Notes: generated by a model from the letters alone, not told the origin. A DNA stretch of 63,761 nt, filler included, from Desulfonatronovibrionaceae bacterium (GCA_046539845.1; 3 parts of 3 records of this genome joined end to end with filler, not necessarily neighbours in it); one strand, 5' to 3'; shown: positions 15,469 through 23,532, counted from the first letter of the whole stretch. Program-made: numbers and translations.

Positions 15469-15819
15469 TCAACTGCGATCGCTCATTTGCTCATCAGTAT
15501 GGAATCCGGACTCCTCCAGGGGCATATTGCGCAGGGAATTGAGTTCCTTTTCCAGATTGGCAACCTTGTGCCTGTATTGTCTGATTTGTCTGGTAGTCCT
15601 GAATTTCTCCACAAAAAAGTAGGCCACTGTAAGCAGGGCGCCCACGGCAAAGGCGATCAAGACCAGAAGATAGAAGGGAAACTCTTTGCTGATGAACTCG
15701 GTCTCGAACAGGTTCAGGCGCAAGGAAAGAGTCTGGGAGAGGACATCAGTATTCTGGACAAAAAAGAGCATGGAGAAAAAGAAAATGGCCACAAAGACAA
15801 TGATCTTTACAAAGCGCAT
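15469..15819 (-). CDS. LapA-family membrane protein
   Basis: Two TM helices, FFVQN motif, C-terminal coiled coil LEKELNSLRN; AAGGAGG RBS. Confidence 0.8.
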   Translation of the reverse strand: MRFVKIIVFVAIFFFSMLFFVQNTDVLSQTLSLRLNLFETEFISKEFPFYLLVLIAFAVGALLTVAYFFVEKFRTTRQIRQYRHKVANLEKELNSLRNMPLEESGFHTDEQMSDRS

Positions 15820-16044
15820 AACCCCTCCTTAAGATAGAGTTGATGGAATCACCGGTCCGGGACCGGATATTTAAATGCATTCATAGGTCCGCAGCAAGGA
15901 ATCCTTTGCTTCTTCAATGGCAGTAAAGCGGCATTAAGGGCAACCTCTTTCTATCCTGATAAGTATATTCAGGCCTTGAACTTTTTAAGTCGCCATTGAG
16001 GTCTTTGAACGGCCTGGGTTACAAGGTTTTTTTTCAATCCTCAG

Positions 16045-16533
16045 TCAGATCTCGACTTTATCGAAATACGGCTTCAATTTGCCGTAGGTCTTTTGCAAGT
16101 GCTCGGGAATGACCATGGTCTCGTCCATAACCGCCATAAAGGAATGGTCCCCCACCCAGCGGGGGAGGAGATGGTAATGGAGGTGCTCCCTGATCCCCGC
16201 CCCAGCGGCCTCACCTATATTCAGACCGATATTTACGCCCTGAGGATTGAATTCCTCCTTCAGTATCCGGGTACAAACCAAAAGCCAGTCCATGATCTCC
16301 CGGGACTCATCTTTTGAGAGTTCGGTCAAACACTGCACGTGCCTGAAGGGGGTAACCATTATATGGCCGGTGTTGTACGGGAACTTGTTCATGATAACAA
16401 AACAGGTCTTTGCCCGTTTCAACACCAACCGCTCTCTATCCTCAGCAGTGTGTTCTGGAAGACAAAAAACGCATTCGTCCGGTTTAGGCCCCAGGATGTA
16501 CTCGATGCGCCACGGGGCCCACATGGTTTTCAT
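16045..16533 (-). CDS. HIT-family hydrolase
   Basis: MWAPWR, CVFC, NKFPYNTGH, GEAAGAG, histidine triad HLHYH; start trimmed to ATG 16533. Confidence 0.92.
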   Translation of the reverse strand: MKTMWAPWRIEYILGPKPDECVFCLPEHTAEDRERLVLKRAKTCFVIMNKFPYNTGHIMVTPFRHVQCLTELSKDESREIMDWLLVCTRILKEEFNPQGVNIGLNIGEAAGAGIREHLHYHLLPRWVGDHSFMAVMDETMVIPEHLQKTYGKLKPYFDKVEI

Positions 16534-16709
16534 TATTAATATCCCTTGTTTTAAAATCCGCTGCACAAGGGCGGCACCCCGGGCGCGGGTTCATTTTCTT
16601 CGAAAGCAATCTTTCGGGTACCGGCCGCAATATGGCCGGACCGCGTTCGTACGGTAAATTAATTAGTTAAATTATAGGGGAAGTTTGGTCAAGAACAAGG
16701 ATGTGCGGG

Positions 16710-16745
16710 AAAATATCCGGACCGCCCCCTTTGGGCGGCCCGGAT
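16710..16745 (-). terminator. intrinsic terminator of the candidate sRNA
   Basis: Minus strand ATCCGGGCCGCCC-AAAGG-GGGCGGTCCGGAT-ATTTT: 13-bp stem with one G-U pair and a short U tract. Confidence 0.7.
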
Positions 16746-16846
16746 TATTAGGAGGGGGAGTGATAGAAGAGGAGGTTGGTCCCCTGATCACAGAGGTCTA
16801 TCCTGTCCAAACAGGAAATGGCCCCTGCGGTCATGAAGTCCTGTAT
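16710..16846 (-). ncRNA. candidate sigma54-dependent trans-acting sRNA (~137 nt)
   Basis: Lies between a sigma54 promoter and a terminator. 5' irregular hairpin closed by TCCTGT-TTGG-ACAGGA; unpaired AACCTCCTCTTCTATCACTCCCCCTCCTAAT linker; no RBS-led ORF. Ends are estimated. Confidence 0.65.
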
Positions 16847-16856
16847 CTATAATTTT

Positions 16857-16873
16857 AGCAATTATCATGCCGA
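16857..16873 (-). promoter_or_regulatory. sigma54 (-24/-12) promoter
   Basis: Minus strand TCGGCATGATAATTGCT = GG-N10-GC, close to consensus TGGCACG-N4-TTGCW; divergent from a sigma54 activator operon. Confidence 0.75.
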
Positions 16874-17012
16874 ATCCAACAAGCCCGCCGGTTTCCGATG
16901 TGCAGGCTTTTTACCGGACTCATCACTCCCCGCCTGCAAACTTTGATTGGCAGGCGGGGAACTTATTGCTACACTGGCAAAGAGAACAAAACTGTTCTAT
17001 TGGACCCAAGTT

Positions 17013-19433
17013 ATGCGCCTGAAACAACCCTTGAGCCTGCAATCCAAATTCCTGGCCGGCCTTGCCTTTATTGCCGTCATCTTGGGGTGTCTGTTTATGG
17101 GGATTTTATATTTTCATATGCAGAGCCTGCTGGTTTCCCAGATAAGTGACAAAGCCAACCTGGCCCTTACCCAGGCTAATTCGGTCCAGGAGTATGTCCG
17201 GAGCGTGCTTCGGCCCAGGCTGTTCAAGGAATTTCCCAAGCACAAATTCGTGATCCAGGCCATGTCCTCCTCGTATGTCTCACGCAAGGTCATGGAAAAA
17301 ATGGAAGGGGAAAACAAAGGATTTTATTATCGACGGGTGGCCCTTAACGCCAGAAACAAAAAGTATTCCCCGAATAAGATGGAAAAGGATCTGATCCGCT
17401 ATTTCCAGGAAAATCCCCACCTGAAACATTTTGAGGGATTCAAACAGTTCAAGGGCCTTGAGTACTATTTTTCCGCCCGGCCGGTAAAATTCACCAAATC
17501 CTGTATGCATTGCCACGGCGATCCTGCAGACGCCCCGGAGGAACTGATAGCCAAATACGGCAACAAAAGGGGATTCGAATACGACCTGAACAGGATAGCC
17601 GGAGCTGTAGTGGTCGGATTCCCGGTTCAGGCCTCAGTGAAAAGGATAAAAGACATCACCCTGGGGTATATGGTCTTATATTTGGCCTGCGTGCTCCTCT
17701 TCTTTACGCTTATAAGCATTTATTTTCAAAGACTCGTTGTCCACAACCTGCACCGGGTGACCGGTATTTTTCGCAGGCACTTCTCCGAACCTCAGGATGT
17801 GGAGATCCTGGACAGCCTCAAAGGTAAAGACGAGATAGAGGAGCTAGTCTGGGGAGTGGAGACCCTGGCCGACCACCTGCAGAATACGCGGCGCAAACTG
17901 CAGGAATATGCCGGCAACCTGGAGGAGATGGTCAACGAAAGAACCAGAGACCTGAGCCGGGAGGTCACCGAACGGCACAAAGACGTGCATTTGTTCATCC
18001 GATTTTTGAACTGCCTGAATATCCGTTCTGAAGTACACAGTCTTTTGGACGCGGCCCTGGAGAACATATACGCTCGCTACGATTTGCAGTATGCCGCCTA
18101 TATCGACGCCCAGCCTCCGCAAAAGGTCTACCTCTGGCCTATAGAGGCCAGATTGGACAAGGTCTCATATACAGATATCAGCGCAAAAATGGGCCCCGAT
18201 TCGGTGCTAAAGAAAAACAGGCTTACCTATGTAAAGGTCCGCTCCCAGGAGACGGTCTGGGGAATTCTGATTCTGGCCTGGAAGACTGAGGATGGGCACG
18301 GCCCGGAAAAGAGCCGGGATCTTTTGGACGCTTTGGGGCAGCAACTGGGCATCGCCCTAGAAAATATCCAGTCTTTATATGAGGTAATGTATCACTATGA
18401 AATGCTGCAGACCTTGTTTGACGGCATCTCCGACCCCCTATTTCTGGTCGAAGAACACGGCTGGGTGCGCATGGCCAATCAGGCGGCCCGAGAGCTGGAC
18501 AGCAGCCTGCAGGACGATGGCACATTCATGGATTTCTTGAATACCGGGGAGGCAGACAAAGCTGGCGTGCTGACTGCGTGCCTGGATGCACAGAAACCCT
18601 GGGCCAGCGACGTACGCCTCCCGGATGGGAGATCGTTCTGGGTCAGCGTGTATCCTCTGCCTGCCCCGGGCAATATGCAGCGCCGAGCCGTGCTTTACGC
18701 CCGGGAAAATACTGCGGAAAAAGAAATGGTGGACCGGATGCAACGGGCGGAAAAGCTGAGCGCTGTGGGCAAACTGGCCGCCGGACTGGCCCATGAGATA
18801 AACAATCCCCTTGGAGTGATTATCTGCTATGTGGACCTCTTGCGCTCCAATATTGAGAACGAGGAGGGCTTGTCCGATCTGGAGGTCATAAAGAAGCACG
18901 CCGGGCATGCCCAGAAAGTGCTTCAGGACCTCTTGAATTTCGCTCGTCCCAAGCCGGCCCTTACTACCGGCAAATGCGATCTGAACCGGCTCATTAACAG
19001 CTCCATGCATGTGTTCCAAGTCCAGGCCGAACGCAGGGGAGTGGAACTGGCTGCGGACCTGCATCCCGAGCTCCCGGTGCTGGAATACAGCAGCAACGCA
19101 TTCGACCAGATACTGACTAATCTGCTTTTGAACGCGCTGGACGCGGTGGAGGAAAACACCGGCCGCATCCGGATAAGCACCGCCTTAAGCAAAGACAAAA
19201 GCTGGATATTGTTGACTGTTGCAGATAATGGTCCGGGAATAGAAGAAAAAGTCAAAGAGCATCTGTTCGATCCCTTTTATACCACCAAGGAAGTCGGTCA
19301 GGGCACCGGGCTGGGCTTGGCAGTGGTTTACGGGCTTGTCCAGGAACTCGGAGGCAAGATAGAGGTAAAAAACAGTGGCGGGGCCGTATTCACTATATAC
19401 ATCCCCTGCGAGAGCAAAAAGAATGAGCAGTAA
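17013..19433 (+). CDS. sensor histidine kinase with periplasmic c-type heme (DUF3365/Tll0287-like) domain, HAMP, GAF-like, PAS-like, HisKA, HATPase
   Basis: Periplasmic CMHCHG between two TM helices; H-box AHEINNPL, N-box NLLLNALDA, DNGPGI, FDPFYTTK, GTGLGL; start ATG 17013 (ORF open from 16947). Confidence 0.93.
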   Translation: MRLKQPLSLQSKFLAGLAFIAVILGCLFMGILYFHMQSLLVSQISDKANLALTQANSVQEYVRSVLRPRLFKEFPKHKFVIQAMSSSYVSRKVMEKMEGENKGFYYRRVALNARNKKYSPNKMEKDLIRYFQENPHLKHFEGFKQFKGLEYYFSARPVKFTKSCMHCHGDPADAPEELIAKYGNKRGFEYDLNRIAGAVVVGFPVQASVKRIKDITLGYMVLYLACVLLFFTLISIYFQRLVVHNLHRVTGIFRRHFSEPQDVEILDSLKGKDEIEELVWGVETLADHLQNTRRKLQEYAGNLEEMVNERTRDLSREVTERHKDVHLFIRFLNCLNIRSEVHSLLDAALENIYARYDLQYAAYIDAQPPQKVYLWPIEARLDKVSYTDISAKMGPDSVLKKNRLTYVKVRSQETVWGILILAWKTEDGHGPEKSRDLLDALGQQLGIALENIQSLYEVMYHYEMLQTLFDGISDPLFLVEEHGWVRMANQAARELDSSLQDDGTFMDFLNTGEADKAGVLTACLDAQKPWASDVRLPDGRSFWVSVYPLPAPGNMQRRAVLYARENTAEKEMVDRMQRAEKLSAVGKLAAGLAHEINNPLGVIICYVDLLRSNIENEEGLSDLEVIKKHAGHAQKVLQDLLNFARPKPALTTGKCDLNRLINSSMHVFQVQAERRGVELAADLHPELPVLEYSSNAFDQILTNLLLNALDAVEENTGRIRISTALSKDKSWILLTVADNGPGIEEKVKEHLFDPFYTTKEVGQGTGLGLAVVYGLVQELGGKIEVKNSGGAVFTIYIPCESKKNEQ

Positions 19434-20829
19434 GGATATCGCGATACTCGTGGTGGACGACGAAGAGGACTTTGCCCAAGGGCTGTCCCGGATGATTTCT
19501 AGGAAATTCCCCAATCCTTGCCTTTTCTGTTCTTCCGGGGATAAGGCTTTGGGCCTCCTGGACGAAAAAGAGGTCGGGGTCCTAATCACCGACCTGCGGA
19601 TGCCGGGCATGGACGGCCTTCAACTCATGAAAAAGGCCCTGGGCAAAAAACAAGATCTGAGCGTGATAATGCTTACCGCCTACGGGACCATAGACAAGGC
19701 GGTGGAGGCCATGAAAGAGGGGGCCTACAACTTCTTGACCAAGCCGCTGGATCCGGAACAGCTGGAAATGGTCTTGAACAAGGCCTTGGAAAGGATCCAT
19801 ATCCTGAAGGAGAACACCCGGCTTAAGGAGTTGATCTCCAGACAAAAGACCCAGAGGCAGATCCTGGGAGAGAGTACTGAAATGGTCCGGCTTTTGGAAC
19901 TGATCAAGGCAGTGGCCGCCACCGGATATACAGTGCTCATCCGCGGCGAATCCGGAACAGGCAAGGAACTGGTGGCCAGGACGATTCACGATCTTAGTCA
20001 GCGCCGGGATGAGGATTTCGTATCCGTGAATTGTCCGGCCATTCCCTCGGAACTGATGGAGAGCGAACTCTTCGGACACGCCCGCGGCGCGTTCACCGGG
20101 GCAGAAAAGGCACACAAAGGCCTTTTTTTTCAGGCAGACAAAGGGACCATCCTTCTGGACGAAATCGGGGACATCCGTCCTGAAGTGCAAACCAAACTCT
20201 TGCGCGTTTTGCAGGAGCAGGAAATAAGACCGGTAGGCGGGAGCAAAAATATTGGCATTGATGTGCGCATCCTGGCCACGACCAATCAGGACCTGGAAGA
20301 GAAGATAAAAACGGCCGAATTCAGAGAGGATCTTTTTTACCGGCTCAATGTCCTGTGCATAAATGTCCCGCCCTTAAGGGAACGCAAGGAAGATATCCCG
20401 GTACTGGTGCTTAATTTCGTGCATCAGACCTGCAAGGAATTGAATATCGCACCCAAAGATGTGGAGCCTGAGGCCCAGGCCTATCTGGCGGCCAAGAACT
20501 GGCCCGGCAATGTCCGAGAGCTGCTCAATTTCACCCGCAGGCTGGTGGTCTTCTGCTCCAAAGAAAGCATTGATCTGTCTTTGGTCCGAGTGGTGGAGAA
20601 TATGGAGGAAGGGAACTCATTCAACGCCCCGCCGGAGGAAATTGCCCCGTACAAGGAACACAAGGCAGCAGTGGTCCACGACTTCACCCGGGTGTATGTG
20701 CGCAATCTTTTGCAGAAAACAAAGGGTAATATAAGCGAGGCCGCACGCATTAGCGGATTGGAACGCGTTTCTTTGCAGAAGATACTGCGCCGGATCGGAA
20801 TAGACGCAGAGGAATTCAGAAAGCAATAA
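19423..20829 (+). CDS. sigma54-dependent response regulator (NtrC-family REC-AAA+-HTH)
   Basis: VVDDE, ITDLRMPGMDG, GESGTGKE, intact GAFTGA, LLDEIGD, FREDLFYRLNV, WPGNVREL, Fis-type HTH; overlaps the kinase stop. Confidence 0.96.
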   Translation: MSSKDIAILVVDDEEDFAQGLSRMISRKFPNPCLFCSSGDKALGLLDEKEVGVLITDLRMPGMDGLQLMKKALGKKQDLSVIMLTAYGTIDKAVEAMKEGAYNFLTKPLDPEQLEMVLNKALERIHILKENTRLKELISRQKTQRQILGESTEMVRLLELIKAVAATGYTVLIRGESGTGKELVARTIHDLSQRRDEDFVSVNCPAIPSELMESELFGHARGAFTGAEKAHKGLFFQADKGTILLDEIGDIRPEVQTKLLRVLQEQEIRPVGGSKNIGIDVRILATTNQDLEEKIKTAEFREDLFYRLNVLCINVPPLRERKEDIPVLVLNFVHQTCKELNIAPKDVEPEAQAYLAAKNWPGNVRELLNFTRRLVVFCSKESIDLSLVRVVENMEEGNSFNAPPEEIAPYKEHKAAVVHDFTRVYVRNLLQKTKGNISEAARISGLERVSLQKILRRIGIDAEEFRKQ

Positions 20830-20868: not shown

Positions 20869-23532
20869 TCAGGTCTTGTTTTTATCTGCAGTCAAGGCCT
20901 TTTTTTCCAGCCACTTGAGTTGGGACTCGCGATCCGGGCACTCTCCGTCGATCTGGGCGGCGGTCAGCTCACGCAGGATCCGCCCCACTTCCGGCCCGGG
21001 AGGGACGCCCGCGGCAACCACGTCCCGCCCGGAGACATACAGCTCCACATCCCGCAGGGTGGTAACAAAAGTGGAGATGTGTCTGCGGATATCCTCCTGC
21101 TGGCTCCTGGCCATTAGATAGAGCAGGGCCTCCAGGGAAAGAGGGTCGAGTATAAAGTACAGCTCACTCAGCCGGCCCTGGTTTTTGTACCAGAAATATA
21201 TCTGCTGCACTGCCTCCCGGACCTGCTGGCGCAGGGAATAGAGGCACTCAGCCTGTTTTTTGGACAAATTGAGCCGGCTCACGGTTATTCCCAGCTGCCG
21301 GTCGTTCATGGAGCTGAACAACCCGGCAAAGAAGACAATCCAGGGCCGGGGAGTTTCCTCCATATACAAGAGCCTGTACCAGTTAAGGACCTTGTCGATC
21401 TCTTCCAGCATGCGCTCCAGGGTGGGCGTAAGTTCCAGGTACGGGTTAACAATCTTCAACAGTCCGAATTCGTTCATCCGCCGTAGACAGGCGGATGGGG
21501 CCTCTTCCTCGAAAATAAGACGCAGTTCCTGGAATATCCGGTTTCCGGACAGGCGGTGGAAGGTATCCAGCTCCACTGCGTTCTTGATCAATTTTTCCGT
21601 CTGCTTACCAATTTTGAATTGGAAACGCTGCTCAAAACGGATAGCGCGGATGATCCGGGTGGGATCCTCGACAAAGCTCAAGGAATGCAAAACCCGGATG
21701 GTCTTTTCCTTTATATCTCGCTGTCCGCCGAAAAAATCGACCAACTTGCCGAAGCTGCGGCTGTTTAAATGCACCGCTAGGGAGTTTATGGTGAAATCCC
21801 TGCGGTTGAGATCCATCTTGATCGATGACAGCTCCACAGTGGGCAGGGCAGCCGGATACTCATAGTACTCCAGACGGGCGGTGGCCACATCAATGCGCTG
21901 ATCGTCGGGCAGAATGACCACCGCGGTCCTGAACTTCTTGTGTGCCCGGATGCGGCCGCCCAGTTTCCGGGCCAGCTCACGGGCAAAGACTATGCCGTCC
22001 CCCTCCACAACCAAGTCCACATCCAGATTGTTCCGGGCCAGAAGTATATCCCGAACAAATCCGCCCACACAGTATAGGGAATAGCCCATTTCTTCGGCCA
22101 GCTCCCCGGCACTGACCAACATATTGAACACCTCTTCCGGCAGGCGGTCTTTGAGCATGCTCTTTATATTCCGTTCCCGCTTTTTCTGGGGCAGGAGGCT
22201 CTCCGGCAGGCGGGCCGGCTCCCGGACCAGGATGTTCACCAGATCGGTCCTGGTAACCACTCCGGTCAGGGCCTGGTTCTCAACCACCGGGATAAGTCGT
22301 TGATGTTGACCGATAATTATCTCCATGACCTGATACAGATCCGAATCCGGACCGAGAAGATGGCAGTCCGAATGCATATACTCCCGGACCGCTATATGCC
22401 CCAGACCGTGTCCCACTGCCTTGTCCGCCAATTGGTGATCCAAAATCCCTTCCACTACACTGGATTGGCTGTTTAGCACGGGCACCGCCTTGAGCCCGTA
22501 TCTGGTCATGATCTCGGCCGCCTTGGCCAAATTCTGACTATCCCGGATATACACGGGGGGAGTGGACATGATATCTTTGACCAGGACTTGGGGGTTTATC
22601 TCTGAATAGAGCAGGGCGAACAGCTCGTTTTTTACCTCAGCCGGGGTCCTCTTTTTTATGGAGGCGGAAGCAGCATAGGAGTGCCCCCCTCCGCCCAGAG
22701 AGGAGCATATCTTGCCCACATCCACCTCTGCGGATCGGCTGCGGGCCACCATATGCACCCGGTCGTGCATACGAGCGATAGCAAAAAGGACCCGGATATT
22801 TTCTATCTCCATTAATTTGTGGGCGAGCAGAGCAAAATCACCGAAATATGTCTCCATGGATGCCTCGGCGACCACGATCTCCACTCCATTGATAGACAAT
22901 CGGGTGGAATTTTCGATCAATTCGTTGAGCACGGTAATCTGATCCGCGCTCAGATCCCGGGAAACCATGTCCGAGATAATGTTCAGATCCATTCCCTGAG
23001 TGTGCAGCCAGGCCCCGGCCTCCAGGTCTTTAGCAGTGGTGGAATTGAACGTGAAACACCCGGTATCCTCGTATATCCCCAACCCAAAGATTGTGGCCTC
23101 GTCTTCGGTTACGGCCAGGCCTTGTTCCCTGATCTTTAAGACCAGCATGGAGGTGGTCGCCCCCCAGTCCGAGATGTCCTCCAGATCCCCTTGGATATCC
23201 TCTTCTGTCTGCGGGTGGTGGTCAAAAATATGGATTTCTACGTCCTTGCGATCCAAAAGAGGAAATACGTGACTGAGCCGGGATTTCTGTCTGGTGTCCA
23301 CAACCACCAGGGTACTCACTCCCTCCAGATCGACCTCCCTGGCCATCTTGAAATTATACAAATAAAAGGCGCTTTGGATAAAGAAATTCTTGATATTCTT
23401 TTCCTGGCTGCCCGGAAAAATAAGCGCGGCCCGGGGGTACAATTTTCTTGCGGCTACCATTGCGGCCAGGGCGTCAAAGTCCGCATTCTGGTGGCAGGTA
23501 ATGACCACCGAGGCCTTGATCGGCGTATTCAT
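20869..23532 (-). CDS. DHH/DHHA1-CBS-CBS-tRNA nucleotidyltransferase (A-adding enzyme type)
   Basis: HQNADFD, DHH, GGGGH, CBS pair, VGGFVRD..DVDLVV, DVATAR, RRDFTIN, EDPTRIIRAIRF. Confidence 0.88.
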   Translation of the reverse strand: MNTPIKASVVITCHQNADFDALAAMVAARKLYPRAALIFPGSQEKNIKNFFIQSAFYLYNFKMAREVDLEGVSTLVVVDTRQKSRLSHVFPLLDRKDVEIHIFDHHPQTEEDIQGDLEDISDWGATTSMLVLKIREQGLAVTEDEATIFGLGIYEDTGCFTFNSTTAKDLEAGAWLHTQGMDLNIISDMVSRDLSADQITVLNELIENSTRLSINGVEIVVAEASMETYFGDFALLAHKLMEIENIRVLFAIARMHDRVHMVARSRSAEVDVGKICSSLGGGGHSYAASASIKKRTPAEVKNELFALLYSEINPQVLVKDIMSTPPVYIRDSQNLAKAAEIMTRYGLKAVPVLNSQSSVVEGILDHQLADKAVGHGLGHIAVREYMHSDCHLLGPDSDLYQVMEIIIGQHQRLIPVVENQALTGVVTRTDLVNILVREPARLPESLLPQKKRERNIKSMLKDRLPEEVFNMLVSAGELAEEMGYSLYCVGGFVRDILLARNNLDVDLVVEGDGIVFARELARKLGGRIRAHKKFRTAVVILPDDQRIDVATARLEYYEYPAALPTVELSSIKMDLNRRDFTINSLAVHLNSRSFGKLVDFFGGQRDIKEKTIRVLHSLSFVEDPTRIIRAIRFEQRFQFKIGKQTEKLIKNAVELDTFHRLSGNRIFQELRLIFEEEAPSACLRRMNEFGLLKIVNPYLELTPTLERMLEEIDKVLNWYRLLYMEETPRPWIVFFAGLFSSMNDRQLGITVSRLNLSKKQAECLYSLRQQVREAVQQIYFWYKNQGRLSELYFILDPLSLEALLYLMARSQQEDIRRHISTFVTTLRDVELYVSGRDVVAAGVPPGPEVGRILRELTAAQIDGECPDRESQLKWLEKKALTADKNKT

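Follow-up and report, generated by a model that had tools for sequence, protein, structure and literature searches.

What is encoded in the noncoding DNA between a HIT-family gene and a heme-c sensor kinase gene? The locus belongs to a window of 63,761 nucleotides (the whole stretch of DNA analyzed here, filler included) from a Desulfonatronovibrionaceae bacterium (GCA_046539845.1; parts of three records joined end to end). A kinase and a sigma-54 activator face one way, and a short unit with its own sigma-54 promoter and terminator faces the other. The initial annotation took this for a LuxO/Qrr-like module, in which the activator switches on a small regulatory RNA (sRNA) with an anti-Shine-Dalgarno (anti-SD) sequence. 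Comparison with related genomes suggests a different answer, to which we assign a probability of roughly 0.68: the short unit is a deletion remnant, the regulatory shell of a lost operon. A ~137-nucleotide (nt) RNA would then arise as a by-product on activation, the HIT gene would be insulated from it, and the two-component system would have been kept for a transporter encoded on another contig, C6.

In the stretch that separates HIT (16045-16533) from the kinase gene (17013-19433), the minus strand carries the promoter and, downstream of it, the parts of the short unit:

16935-16952, no strand: upstream activator site, palindrome TGCCAATCAAAGTTTGCA in the minus-strand reading; the sole match in the window and a match to a motif validated by electrophoretic mobility shift assay (EMSA)
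16857-16873, minus strand: sigma-54 -24/-12 promoter TCGGCATGATAATTGCT, aligning with CGGCACAATCATTGCT (locus L089) and TGGCATCAGAATTGCT (genomes G001 and G003)
16710-16846, minus strand: predicted RNA of ~137 nt, beginning at the sigma-54 start and ending with the terminator (folded)
16785-16833, minus strand: 5' hairpin (from the fold)
16777 to about 16747, minus strand: CU-rich linker AACCUCCUCUUCUAUCACUCCCCCUCCUAAU, largely open in the fold
16751-16762, minus strand: CACUCCCCCUCC block of 12 nt, invariant in 5 of 5 aligned loci and part of the operon 3' untranslated region (UTR) in relatives
16715-16745, minus strand: terminator hairpin of 13 pairs, then AUUUUCCC (AUUUU), from fold and alignment
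16748-16834, minus strand: 28-codon open reading frame (ORF) MTAGAISCLDRIDLCDQGTNLLFYHSPS, from ATG 16834 to TAA 16748, with AGGA 4 nt upstream and no relatives

The promoter, the hairpin, the CU-rich linker, and the 13-bp terminator can all be read or folded where the initial annotation placed them, but its remark that no ORF led by a ribosome-binding site (RBS) lies inside the unit does not strictly hold, given the 28-codon frame with its weak AGGA.

Relatives were sought through the kinase, which is present at full length (34-52% identity) in 15 of 60 other genomes and as a contig-truncated copy in G003; 18 kinase loci were compared, 17 related ones and the window's own. Eight of the 18, the window's own among them, have a strong sigma-54 promoter that lies 140-390 nt upstream of the kinase and is oriented away from it, and at all seven of the others the next genes, led by Shine-Dalgarno (SD) sequences, encode a small and a large membrane protein. 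In G001, the one locus tested by Pfam, the large protein belongs to PF03601 (Cons_hypoth698, the "PSE" family) and the third gene encodes a DUF5395 protein. The congeneric genomes G001 and G003 share a single order: kinase, palindrome and promoter, then small protein, PF03601 protein, DUF5395 protein, a protein of 62 amino acids (aa), a spacer, and (T/C)CACTCCCCCTCC with a terminator. After block and terminator come HIT and then LapA in G001, G003, and locus L086, with LapB (a TPR protein) next in G003 and L086; the L087 stretch ends past the block, inside the region that holds HIT in G001. At all five of the closest loci, the operon ends in the same CACUCCCCCUCC block and a terminator, and HIT follows wherever the sequence reaches.

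The closest locus, L089, shares 72% DNA identity with window positions 18383-16932, from inside the kinase gene to the palindrome. Its palindrome TGCCAACTATAGTTAGCA and its promoter are followed by genes for the small protein, the DUF5395 protein, and a 489-aa transporter. Homology with the window breaks after the promoter and restarts at L089 position 3487, two bases past the transporter stop codon, which corresponds to window position 16775; the resumed stretch (L089 3487-3619, window 16775-16644) contains both CU motifs, the terminator, and the HIT promoter. The window is without ~1.9 kb present in L089 and ~2.35 kb present in G001. The conservation that the initial annotation expected upstream of orthologous kinases thus holds for the promoter, at seven related loci, whereas the CCUCC block is kept there only as an operon 3' end, at a distance of 2-2.4 kb from the promoter. 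Because the relatives' promoter drives a coding operon whose 3' end holds the block, the supposed sRNA gene is best read as what a deletion left behind. The operon-bearing state also occurs in other families (G032, G035, G008, G045, and G037), which argues that the operon is ancestral and the state of the window derived. In G002, of the same genus, a poly(A)-polymerase-like gene stands directly before HIT, and kinase, operon, and CU block are all missing; since the genome without the module is also without the block, the block belongs to the kinase-operon module and not to HIT. Contigs from two runs, from which this DNA may itself derive, bridge the junction in the window, and a contig of a third run covers 16553-16838; as far as can be told, the junction is no assembly artifact.

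The promoter has its GG at 16871-16870 and its GC at 16859-16858, a 10-nt spacer that places the predicted start near 16846, and the context CGGCAT-GATAA-TTGCT (16872-16857) resembles TGGCAC-N5-TTGCW. By itself the pattern is within chance, with two matches in the window against 0.72 expected and at least two in 19 of 100 shuffles; it is credible because the palindrome is unique in the window and the site is conserved at related loci. TGC-AA-N6-TT-GCA matches once in the whole window against 0.07 expected, ~73 bp from the -24 element, and the distance is 70-73 bp in L089, G001, and G003 as well. Counterparts of the palindrome were seen in L089, G001, G003, G035, and G045, and it is visible at five of the 18 kinase loci (e.g., TGCTAACAAAAGTTAGCA). 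These observations support the view that the kinase/activator pair and the adjoining sigma-54 promoter are wired together, so that the activator would be the one to open it. The other exact GGCAY-N5-TTGCW match of the window, at 982-996 on the plus strand, lies within a 454-aa ORF (85-1449) and is most likely due to chance. The activator site is also nested in a longer inverted repeat, CCCCGCCTGC...GCAGGCGGGG (16922-16965), a form that L089 does not have.

If the adjoining operon is gone, what would keep the regulators? The bacterium's own genome (G000, 98.9% complete) has one Tll0287 gene, the window kinase, and one PF03601 gene, at C6:75519-77297, unlinked and 28% identical to the lost type. 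There are 14 strong sigma-54 activators, none of them on C6, and rpoN is present (PF04552 match at C8:57512-57991, E 6.7e-62). Upstream of the C6 transporter gene stands TGCTAAATAAAGTTAGCA and, ~124 nt on, TGGTTAAATTTTTGCT, a palindrome and a sigma-54 promoter, the latter conserved in G001 and G002. In those two genomes, the C6-type transporter adjoins a Tll0287 kinase and an activator of its own (domains tested in G001); in G000, within C6:75519-80633, a FIST protein and a PAS-HisKA-HATPase-REC hybrid kinase stand in place of this kinase and activator. Six palindrome-like sites occur in the genome, and only the window site (contig C32) and the C6 site have, no more than 330 nt away, a sigma-54-like promoter scoring at least 12 on the scale applied to the kinase loci. 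The sites on C4, C9, C35, and C36 were set aside, as no promoter of that score is nearby; C9 has three weak matches of score 11. In Desulfovibrio vulgaris Hildenborough, the paralogous regulators DVU0539 and DVU0946 have an EMSA-validated site in common (Rajeev 2011, PMC3333781); because paralogues of this kind share one site, the surviving activator could serve the surviving transporter.

Our favored scenario is then as follows. In an ancestor, a kinase/activator pair of the DVU0539/DVU0946 type would have switched on the divergent sigma-54 promoter through the TGC-AA-N6-TT-GCA palindrome, and the promoter would have driven an operon with genes for a small membrane protein, a DUF5395 protein, and a PF03601 ("PSE") transporter, followed by a CU-rich 3' UTR and, immediately ahead of HIT, an intrinsic terminator. 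A deletion of about 1.9-2.4 kb of coding sequence would have brought the former 3' UTR to a distance of ~80-95 nt from the activator site and promoter. A signal received by the heme-c domain would still lead to a phosphorylated activator and an open promoter, but the product would be only the ~137-nt RNA, composed of a leader remnant, the CU tract, and the terminator; HIT would be shielded by the terminator and expressed from its own promoter. The loss would have been reciprocal, one circuit losing its transporter and the other its paralogous kinase and activator, and the surviving two-component system would most likely now serve the C6 PF03601 transporter.

Several observations weigh against this scenario. 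About 70 nt of the unit (16846-16776) have no recognizable origin: blastn-short matched them neither elsewhere in the bacterium's genome nor in any locus fetched for comparison. Nor did a near-identical relative that keeps the operon turn up, from which the deletion could be mapped and dated. Ten of the 18 kinase loci are without a strong divergent promoter at the threshold used, and the half-sites of the window, TGCCAA and TTTGCA, both depart from the TGCTAA form at position 4, although the D. vulgaris sites are likewise variable there (PMC3333781). Control of the C6 gene by the window activator is suggested by motif similarity alone, and the genome has 13 other activators. Finally, the block is perfectly kept though the kinases of the window and of G001/G003 share only 42-46% of their residues. 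Visual comparison hints that the ~14-20 nt preceding 16775 might correspond to the final codons of the L089 transporter (CCTCTG in common), a similarity too weak to claim.

The unit, if transcribed as predicted, would be a well-folded RNA. The fold of 16846-16705 reaches -58.6 kcal/mol (z -3.3; none of 200 shuffles as good), and the 5' hairpin by itself stands out less, at -22.2 kcal/mol (z -1.92; an energy reached by 7 of 200 shuffles). A simple terminator scan did not list the hairpin at 16745-16715. The initial annotation had thought of an unannotated homolog of a known RNA, and a search of Rfam returned no match above E about 1; a permissive scan (cmscan, 15500-18000, E up to 10) gave only chance-level matches of 11.9-18.6 bits, far below the gathering scores. 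Searched as DNA against 61 related genomes, the 201-nt unit has a lone weak partial match, to its 3' quarter, in G001 (E 0.002).

The conservation within the unit is confined to its 3' part. Five distinct 3' ends were aligned, L087 being omitted as its stretch is identical to that of G001; CACTCCCCCTCC, ATCCGG, and TCCGGATA are invariant, the flanks vary, and the upper terminator stem differs between loci with its pairing kept. The first CCUCCU motif is common to the window and L089 only. Perfect conservation of the block among such diverged loci argues for a function of the operon 3' UTR, which the short RNA could have inherited; that function may be a released sRNA or an action in cis, and the data favor neither. 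The element has a narrow distribution. Among 185,579 species genomes, the pattern of block and terminator occurs only in the two contigs of G001 and G003, and of four stretches from metagenomes three are true and one, L088, is a chance match in GC-rich coding sequence. No such block stands 3' of the transporter in six more distant loci, and the paralogous, C6-type transporter of G000, G001, and G002 is not followed by one either. A repeated family of the 13-mer was rejected, its genome counts being similar to those of the reversed control; one own-genome match is a tRNA-like 3' end (...CCGCCA). In G001, L086, and G003, a conserved TATAATCC containing TATAAT lies ~25 nt before the block (alignment columns 12-19) and could be the -10 box of an independent ~70-nt RNA in operon-bearing genomes; no convincing -35 element was seen in these three, and the element is missing from L089 and the window.

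This pattern of conservation bears most directly on the possibility that the short RNA works as a sigma-54-dependent anti-SD sRNA. The relatives' 3' UTR-derived sRNA would have been made stand-alone by the loss of the coding genes, and under the same kinase/activator control, it would pair through UCCCCCUCC with G-rich RBSs. We hold this to be possible rather than probable. CACTCCCCCTCC is invariant at five of five loci while flanks and upper stem change, despite 42-46% kinase identity and 72% DNA identity with L089; the block sits just 5' of the terminator as a mostly unpaired, conserved single-stranded stretch of the kind expected of a seed; and promoter, block, and terminator were all spared by the deletion. 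There is also the precedent of UhpU, an sRNA from the 3' UTR of a transporter mRNA (PMC12704781). Yet the unit has no gene of its own at related loci, where the block ends a coding operon of 2-2.4 kb and could affect the stability or termination of its mRNA in cis. The first CCUCCU is shared with L089 alone, and the element as a whole is found in a small clade, at two genome loci and three true metagenome loci, and is absent from the six more distant loci; the 13-mer is no more frequent in these genomes than the reversed control. As for targets, AGGAGGGGG stands 1-5 nt before the start codon in six ORFs of the own genome, but an anti-SD seed has low specificity. In an RNAduplex scan of ~7,600 crude ORF starts, the energies of which are dominated by G-rich false ORFs, the translation initiation regions of kinase, activator, C6 transporter, and HIT all pair at background level (rank fractions 0.86, 0.74, 0.24, and 0.64, respectively). 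The RBS of rpsM was dropped as a seed target, the own-genome rpsM having only AGGGGGA; in G002 (C19, locus L079), the rpsM RBS GAGGGGGAGTGAAGTG is perfectly complementary to the CU block over 11 nt, yet G002 is without the module. Hfq (PF17209) was not found in the 98.9%-complete genome, which is no proof of absence. On balance, the short RNA is more likely a by-product than a regulator. The evolutionary claim that goes with a regulator, the birth of an sRNA by subtraction, with the anti-SD RNA of a PSE-transporter 3' UTR becoming a free-standing gene and the kinase/activator pair acquiring two outputs as paralogous circuits merged, appears rather unlikely to us.

Two readings make the unit coding, and both fare much worse. 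The sigma-54 promoter could express a 28-residue peptide from ATG 16834, the frame being open to a tandem TAATAA (16750-16745) and preceded at 4 nt by AGGA. The SD is weak beside the GGAGG sites of neighboring genes, however, the AUG lies at the foot of the hairpin, and no DNA-level relative was found in related genomes, the own genome, or the fetched loci; the frame also crosses the former 3' UTR, as an accidental fusion would. We judge the peptide very improbable and the ORF to be probably a fusion artifact of the deletion. Still less credible is that the block is conserved as plus-strand GGAGGGGGAGTG, the SD and GTG start of a small antisense ORF (16760-16852). AGGAGG does stand 4 nt before GTG 16760 and a 30-codon frame, and the SD-GTG string is kept wherever the block is, but the reverse complements, read by eye, give peptides that bear no relation to one another (VIEEEVGPL... 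in the window, VTIDRLYK... in G001, and in L089 a short frame like neither), no promoter is evident, and the frame in L089 is antisense to the 3' end of the transporter gene. The deletion remnant thus remains our preferred explanation. That the RNA is just a leader of the HIT operon, the outcome named in the initial annotation as fatal to its proposal, does not apply, because the terminator and a promoter of HIT's own, conserved TTGACC-N17-TAACTA, stand between the two.

The genes and promoters on either side of the unit are the following:

16045-16533, minus strand: HIT-family gene, the conserved downstream neighbor (Pfam, synteny)
16664-16692, minus strand: HIT's own sigma-70-type promoter, TTGACC-N17-TAACTA, kept in L089
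16947-16975, plus strand: sigma-70-like promoter of the kinase operon, TTGGCA-17-TACACT, from a promoter scan, with both hexamers kept in L089
17013-19433, plus strand: sensor histidine kinase with a transmembrane segment, a periplasmic Tll0287-like (DUF3365) domain with CMHCH, a second transmembrane segment, HisKA, and HATPase_c (Pfam, translation)
19423-20829, plus strand: NtrC-type regulator with REC, Sigma54_activat (GAFTGA), and HTH_8 (Pfam, translation), its start overlapping the kinase stop

The kinase with a periplasmic CxxCH and the NtrC-type activator with GAFTGA, both proposed from the outset, were borne out: two hydrophobic stretches flank CMHCH, which lines up with the CxxCH of PDB 5b82, and the GAFTGA loop is intact, as in an enhancer-binding protein. 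The -35 hexamer of the kinase-operon promoter overlaps the activator palindrome, which suggests that the kinase operon may be autoregulated. A weak kinase-facing sigma-54-like element, CGGGGAACTTATTGCT, was rejected in favor of the conserved sigma-70-like promoter, its GG being lost in L089. G002 has TTGACC upstream of HIT, together with the ATAATTTAAC stretch, within which TAACTA begins in the window. Beyond the activator gene, 20869-23532 on the minus strand encodes an 887-aa protein with DHH/DHHA1, two CBS domains, and a poly(A)-polymerase/CCA-adding head domain; its homologue in G002 stands directly before HIT, so the block of kinase, activator, and operon behaves as a module that can be inserted or deleted between these genes. 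In five more distant relatives (L041-L045, in G031, G057, G049, G041, and G053), a 77-aa small protein and a large membrane protein are encoded upstream of the kinase and codirectional with it, not divergent, an arrangement that recalls the gene order DVU0943-DVU0946.

A locus that looks like a textbook pairing of an activator with a divergent sigma-54 sRNA can, on this evidence, arise from the loss of a coding operon. A single genome can mislead here, and synteny should be checked before such units are called sRNA genes. Should the short RNA be active, the locus would document how a 3' UTR element can become an sRNA gene in its own right and exemplify the collapse of two paralogous sensor-transporter circuits into one. 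The link among the DVU0539/DVU0946-type site, the PF03601 transporter, and the Tll0287 heme-c kinase is in any case extended to uncultured relatives labelled Desulfovibrionales. The regulator type, the site, the link to PSE transporters, sigma-54 sRNAs beside activators, and transporter sRNAs derived from 3' UTRs have all been published; what appears new is the configuration, a promoter fused to a 3' UTR through operon loss with probable rewiring to a paralogous transporter, although after a limited literature search we do not claim that it is unpublished.

The comparison with known systems points the same way. In LuxO-Qrr of Vibrio and GlrK/GlrR-GlmY of Escherichia coli, a phosphorylated NtrC-type regulator acts on the sigma-54 promoter of an sRNA gene beside the regulator or kinase gene; Qrr and GlmY are conserved, dedicated sRNA genes, and Qrr needs Hfq. 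Of the proposed LuxO/Qrr likeness, the wiring of activator and promoter survives, through the palindrome and the published EMSA site, and the dedicated, conserved sRNA gene does not: the promoter of the window would ancestrally have served a coding operon, as it does in relatives, the RNA has no Rfam match, and Hfq was not found.

UhpU, made from the uhpT transporter mRNA (PMC12704781), resembles the predicted RNA of the unit in having a conserved terminator-proximal stretch at the 3' end of a transporter transcript and in sharing a parental transcriptional signal; it differs in that the parental gene is gone from the genome of the window. Closer in taxonomy, four noncoding RNAs are described in the sigma-54 regulome of D. 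vulgaris, under DVU0653, DVU0679, DVU1419, and DVU2359 (Kazakov 2015, PMC4641369). The parallel with the DVU0679 region drawn in the initial annotation is a real published case: Dv_sRNA2 pairs a Desulfovibrionales regulator with a sigma-54 promoter for a noncoding RNA beside the regulator gene, as proposed here, a likeness of gene arrangement. The site reported for DVU0679, CGTGCG-N4-CGCACG (PMC3333781), is of another type than the palindrome of the window and is absent from the intergenic region, the window's only GTGC-N6-GCAC match lying in the kinase gene at 18578; DVU0679 also has GAYTGS (PMC4641369) where the window activator has GAFTGA.

By the form of its site and by the membrane-protein (PSE) target in relatives, the locus is instead to be placed with DVU0539/DVU0540 and DVU0945/DVU0946. 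As in the window, these have an NtrC-type sigma-54 regulator with GAFTGA and a TGC(A/T)AA-N6-TT(T/A)GCA site; the sites listed include TGCAAAGTGATGTTTGCA, TGCAAATTGAAGTTTGCA, and TGCTAACTCGTGTTAGCA (PMC3333781, Tables S7-S9), and the targets include the "membrane protein" genes DVU0943 and DVU2133. PSE-family transporters are reported as sigma-54 dependent in D. vulgaris (PMC4641369), the adjoining "membrane protein" targets parallel the membrane-protein operon at the related loci, and the paralogous regulators share one site. The difference is that, in the window, the adjoining target operon appears to have been deleted, leaving the short RNA as the sole possible product of the promoter.

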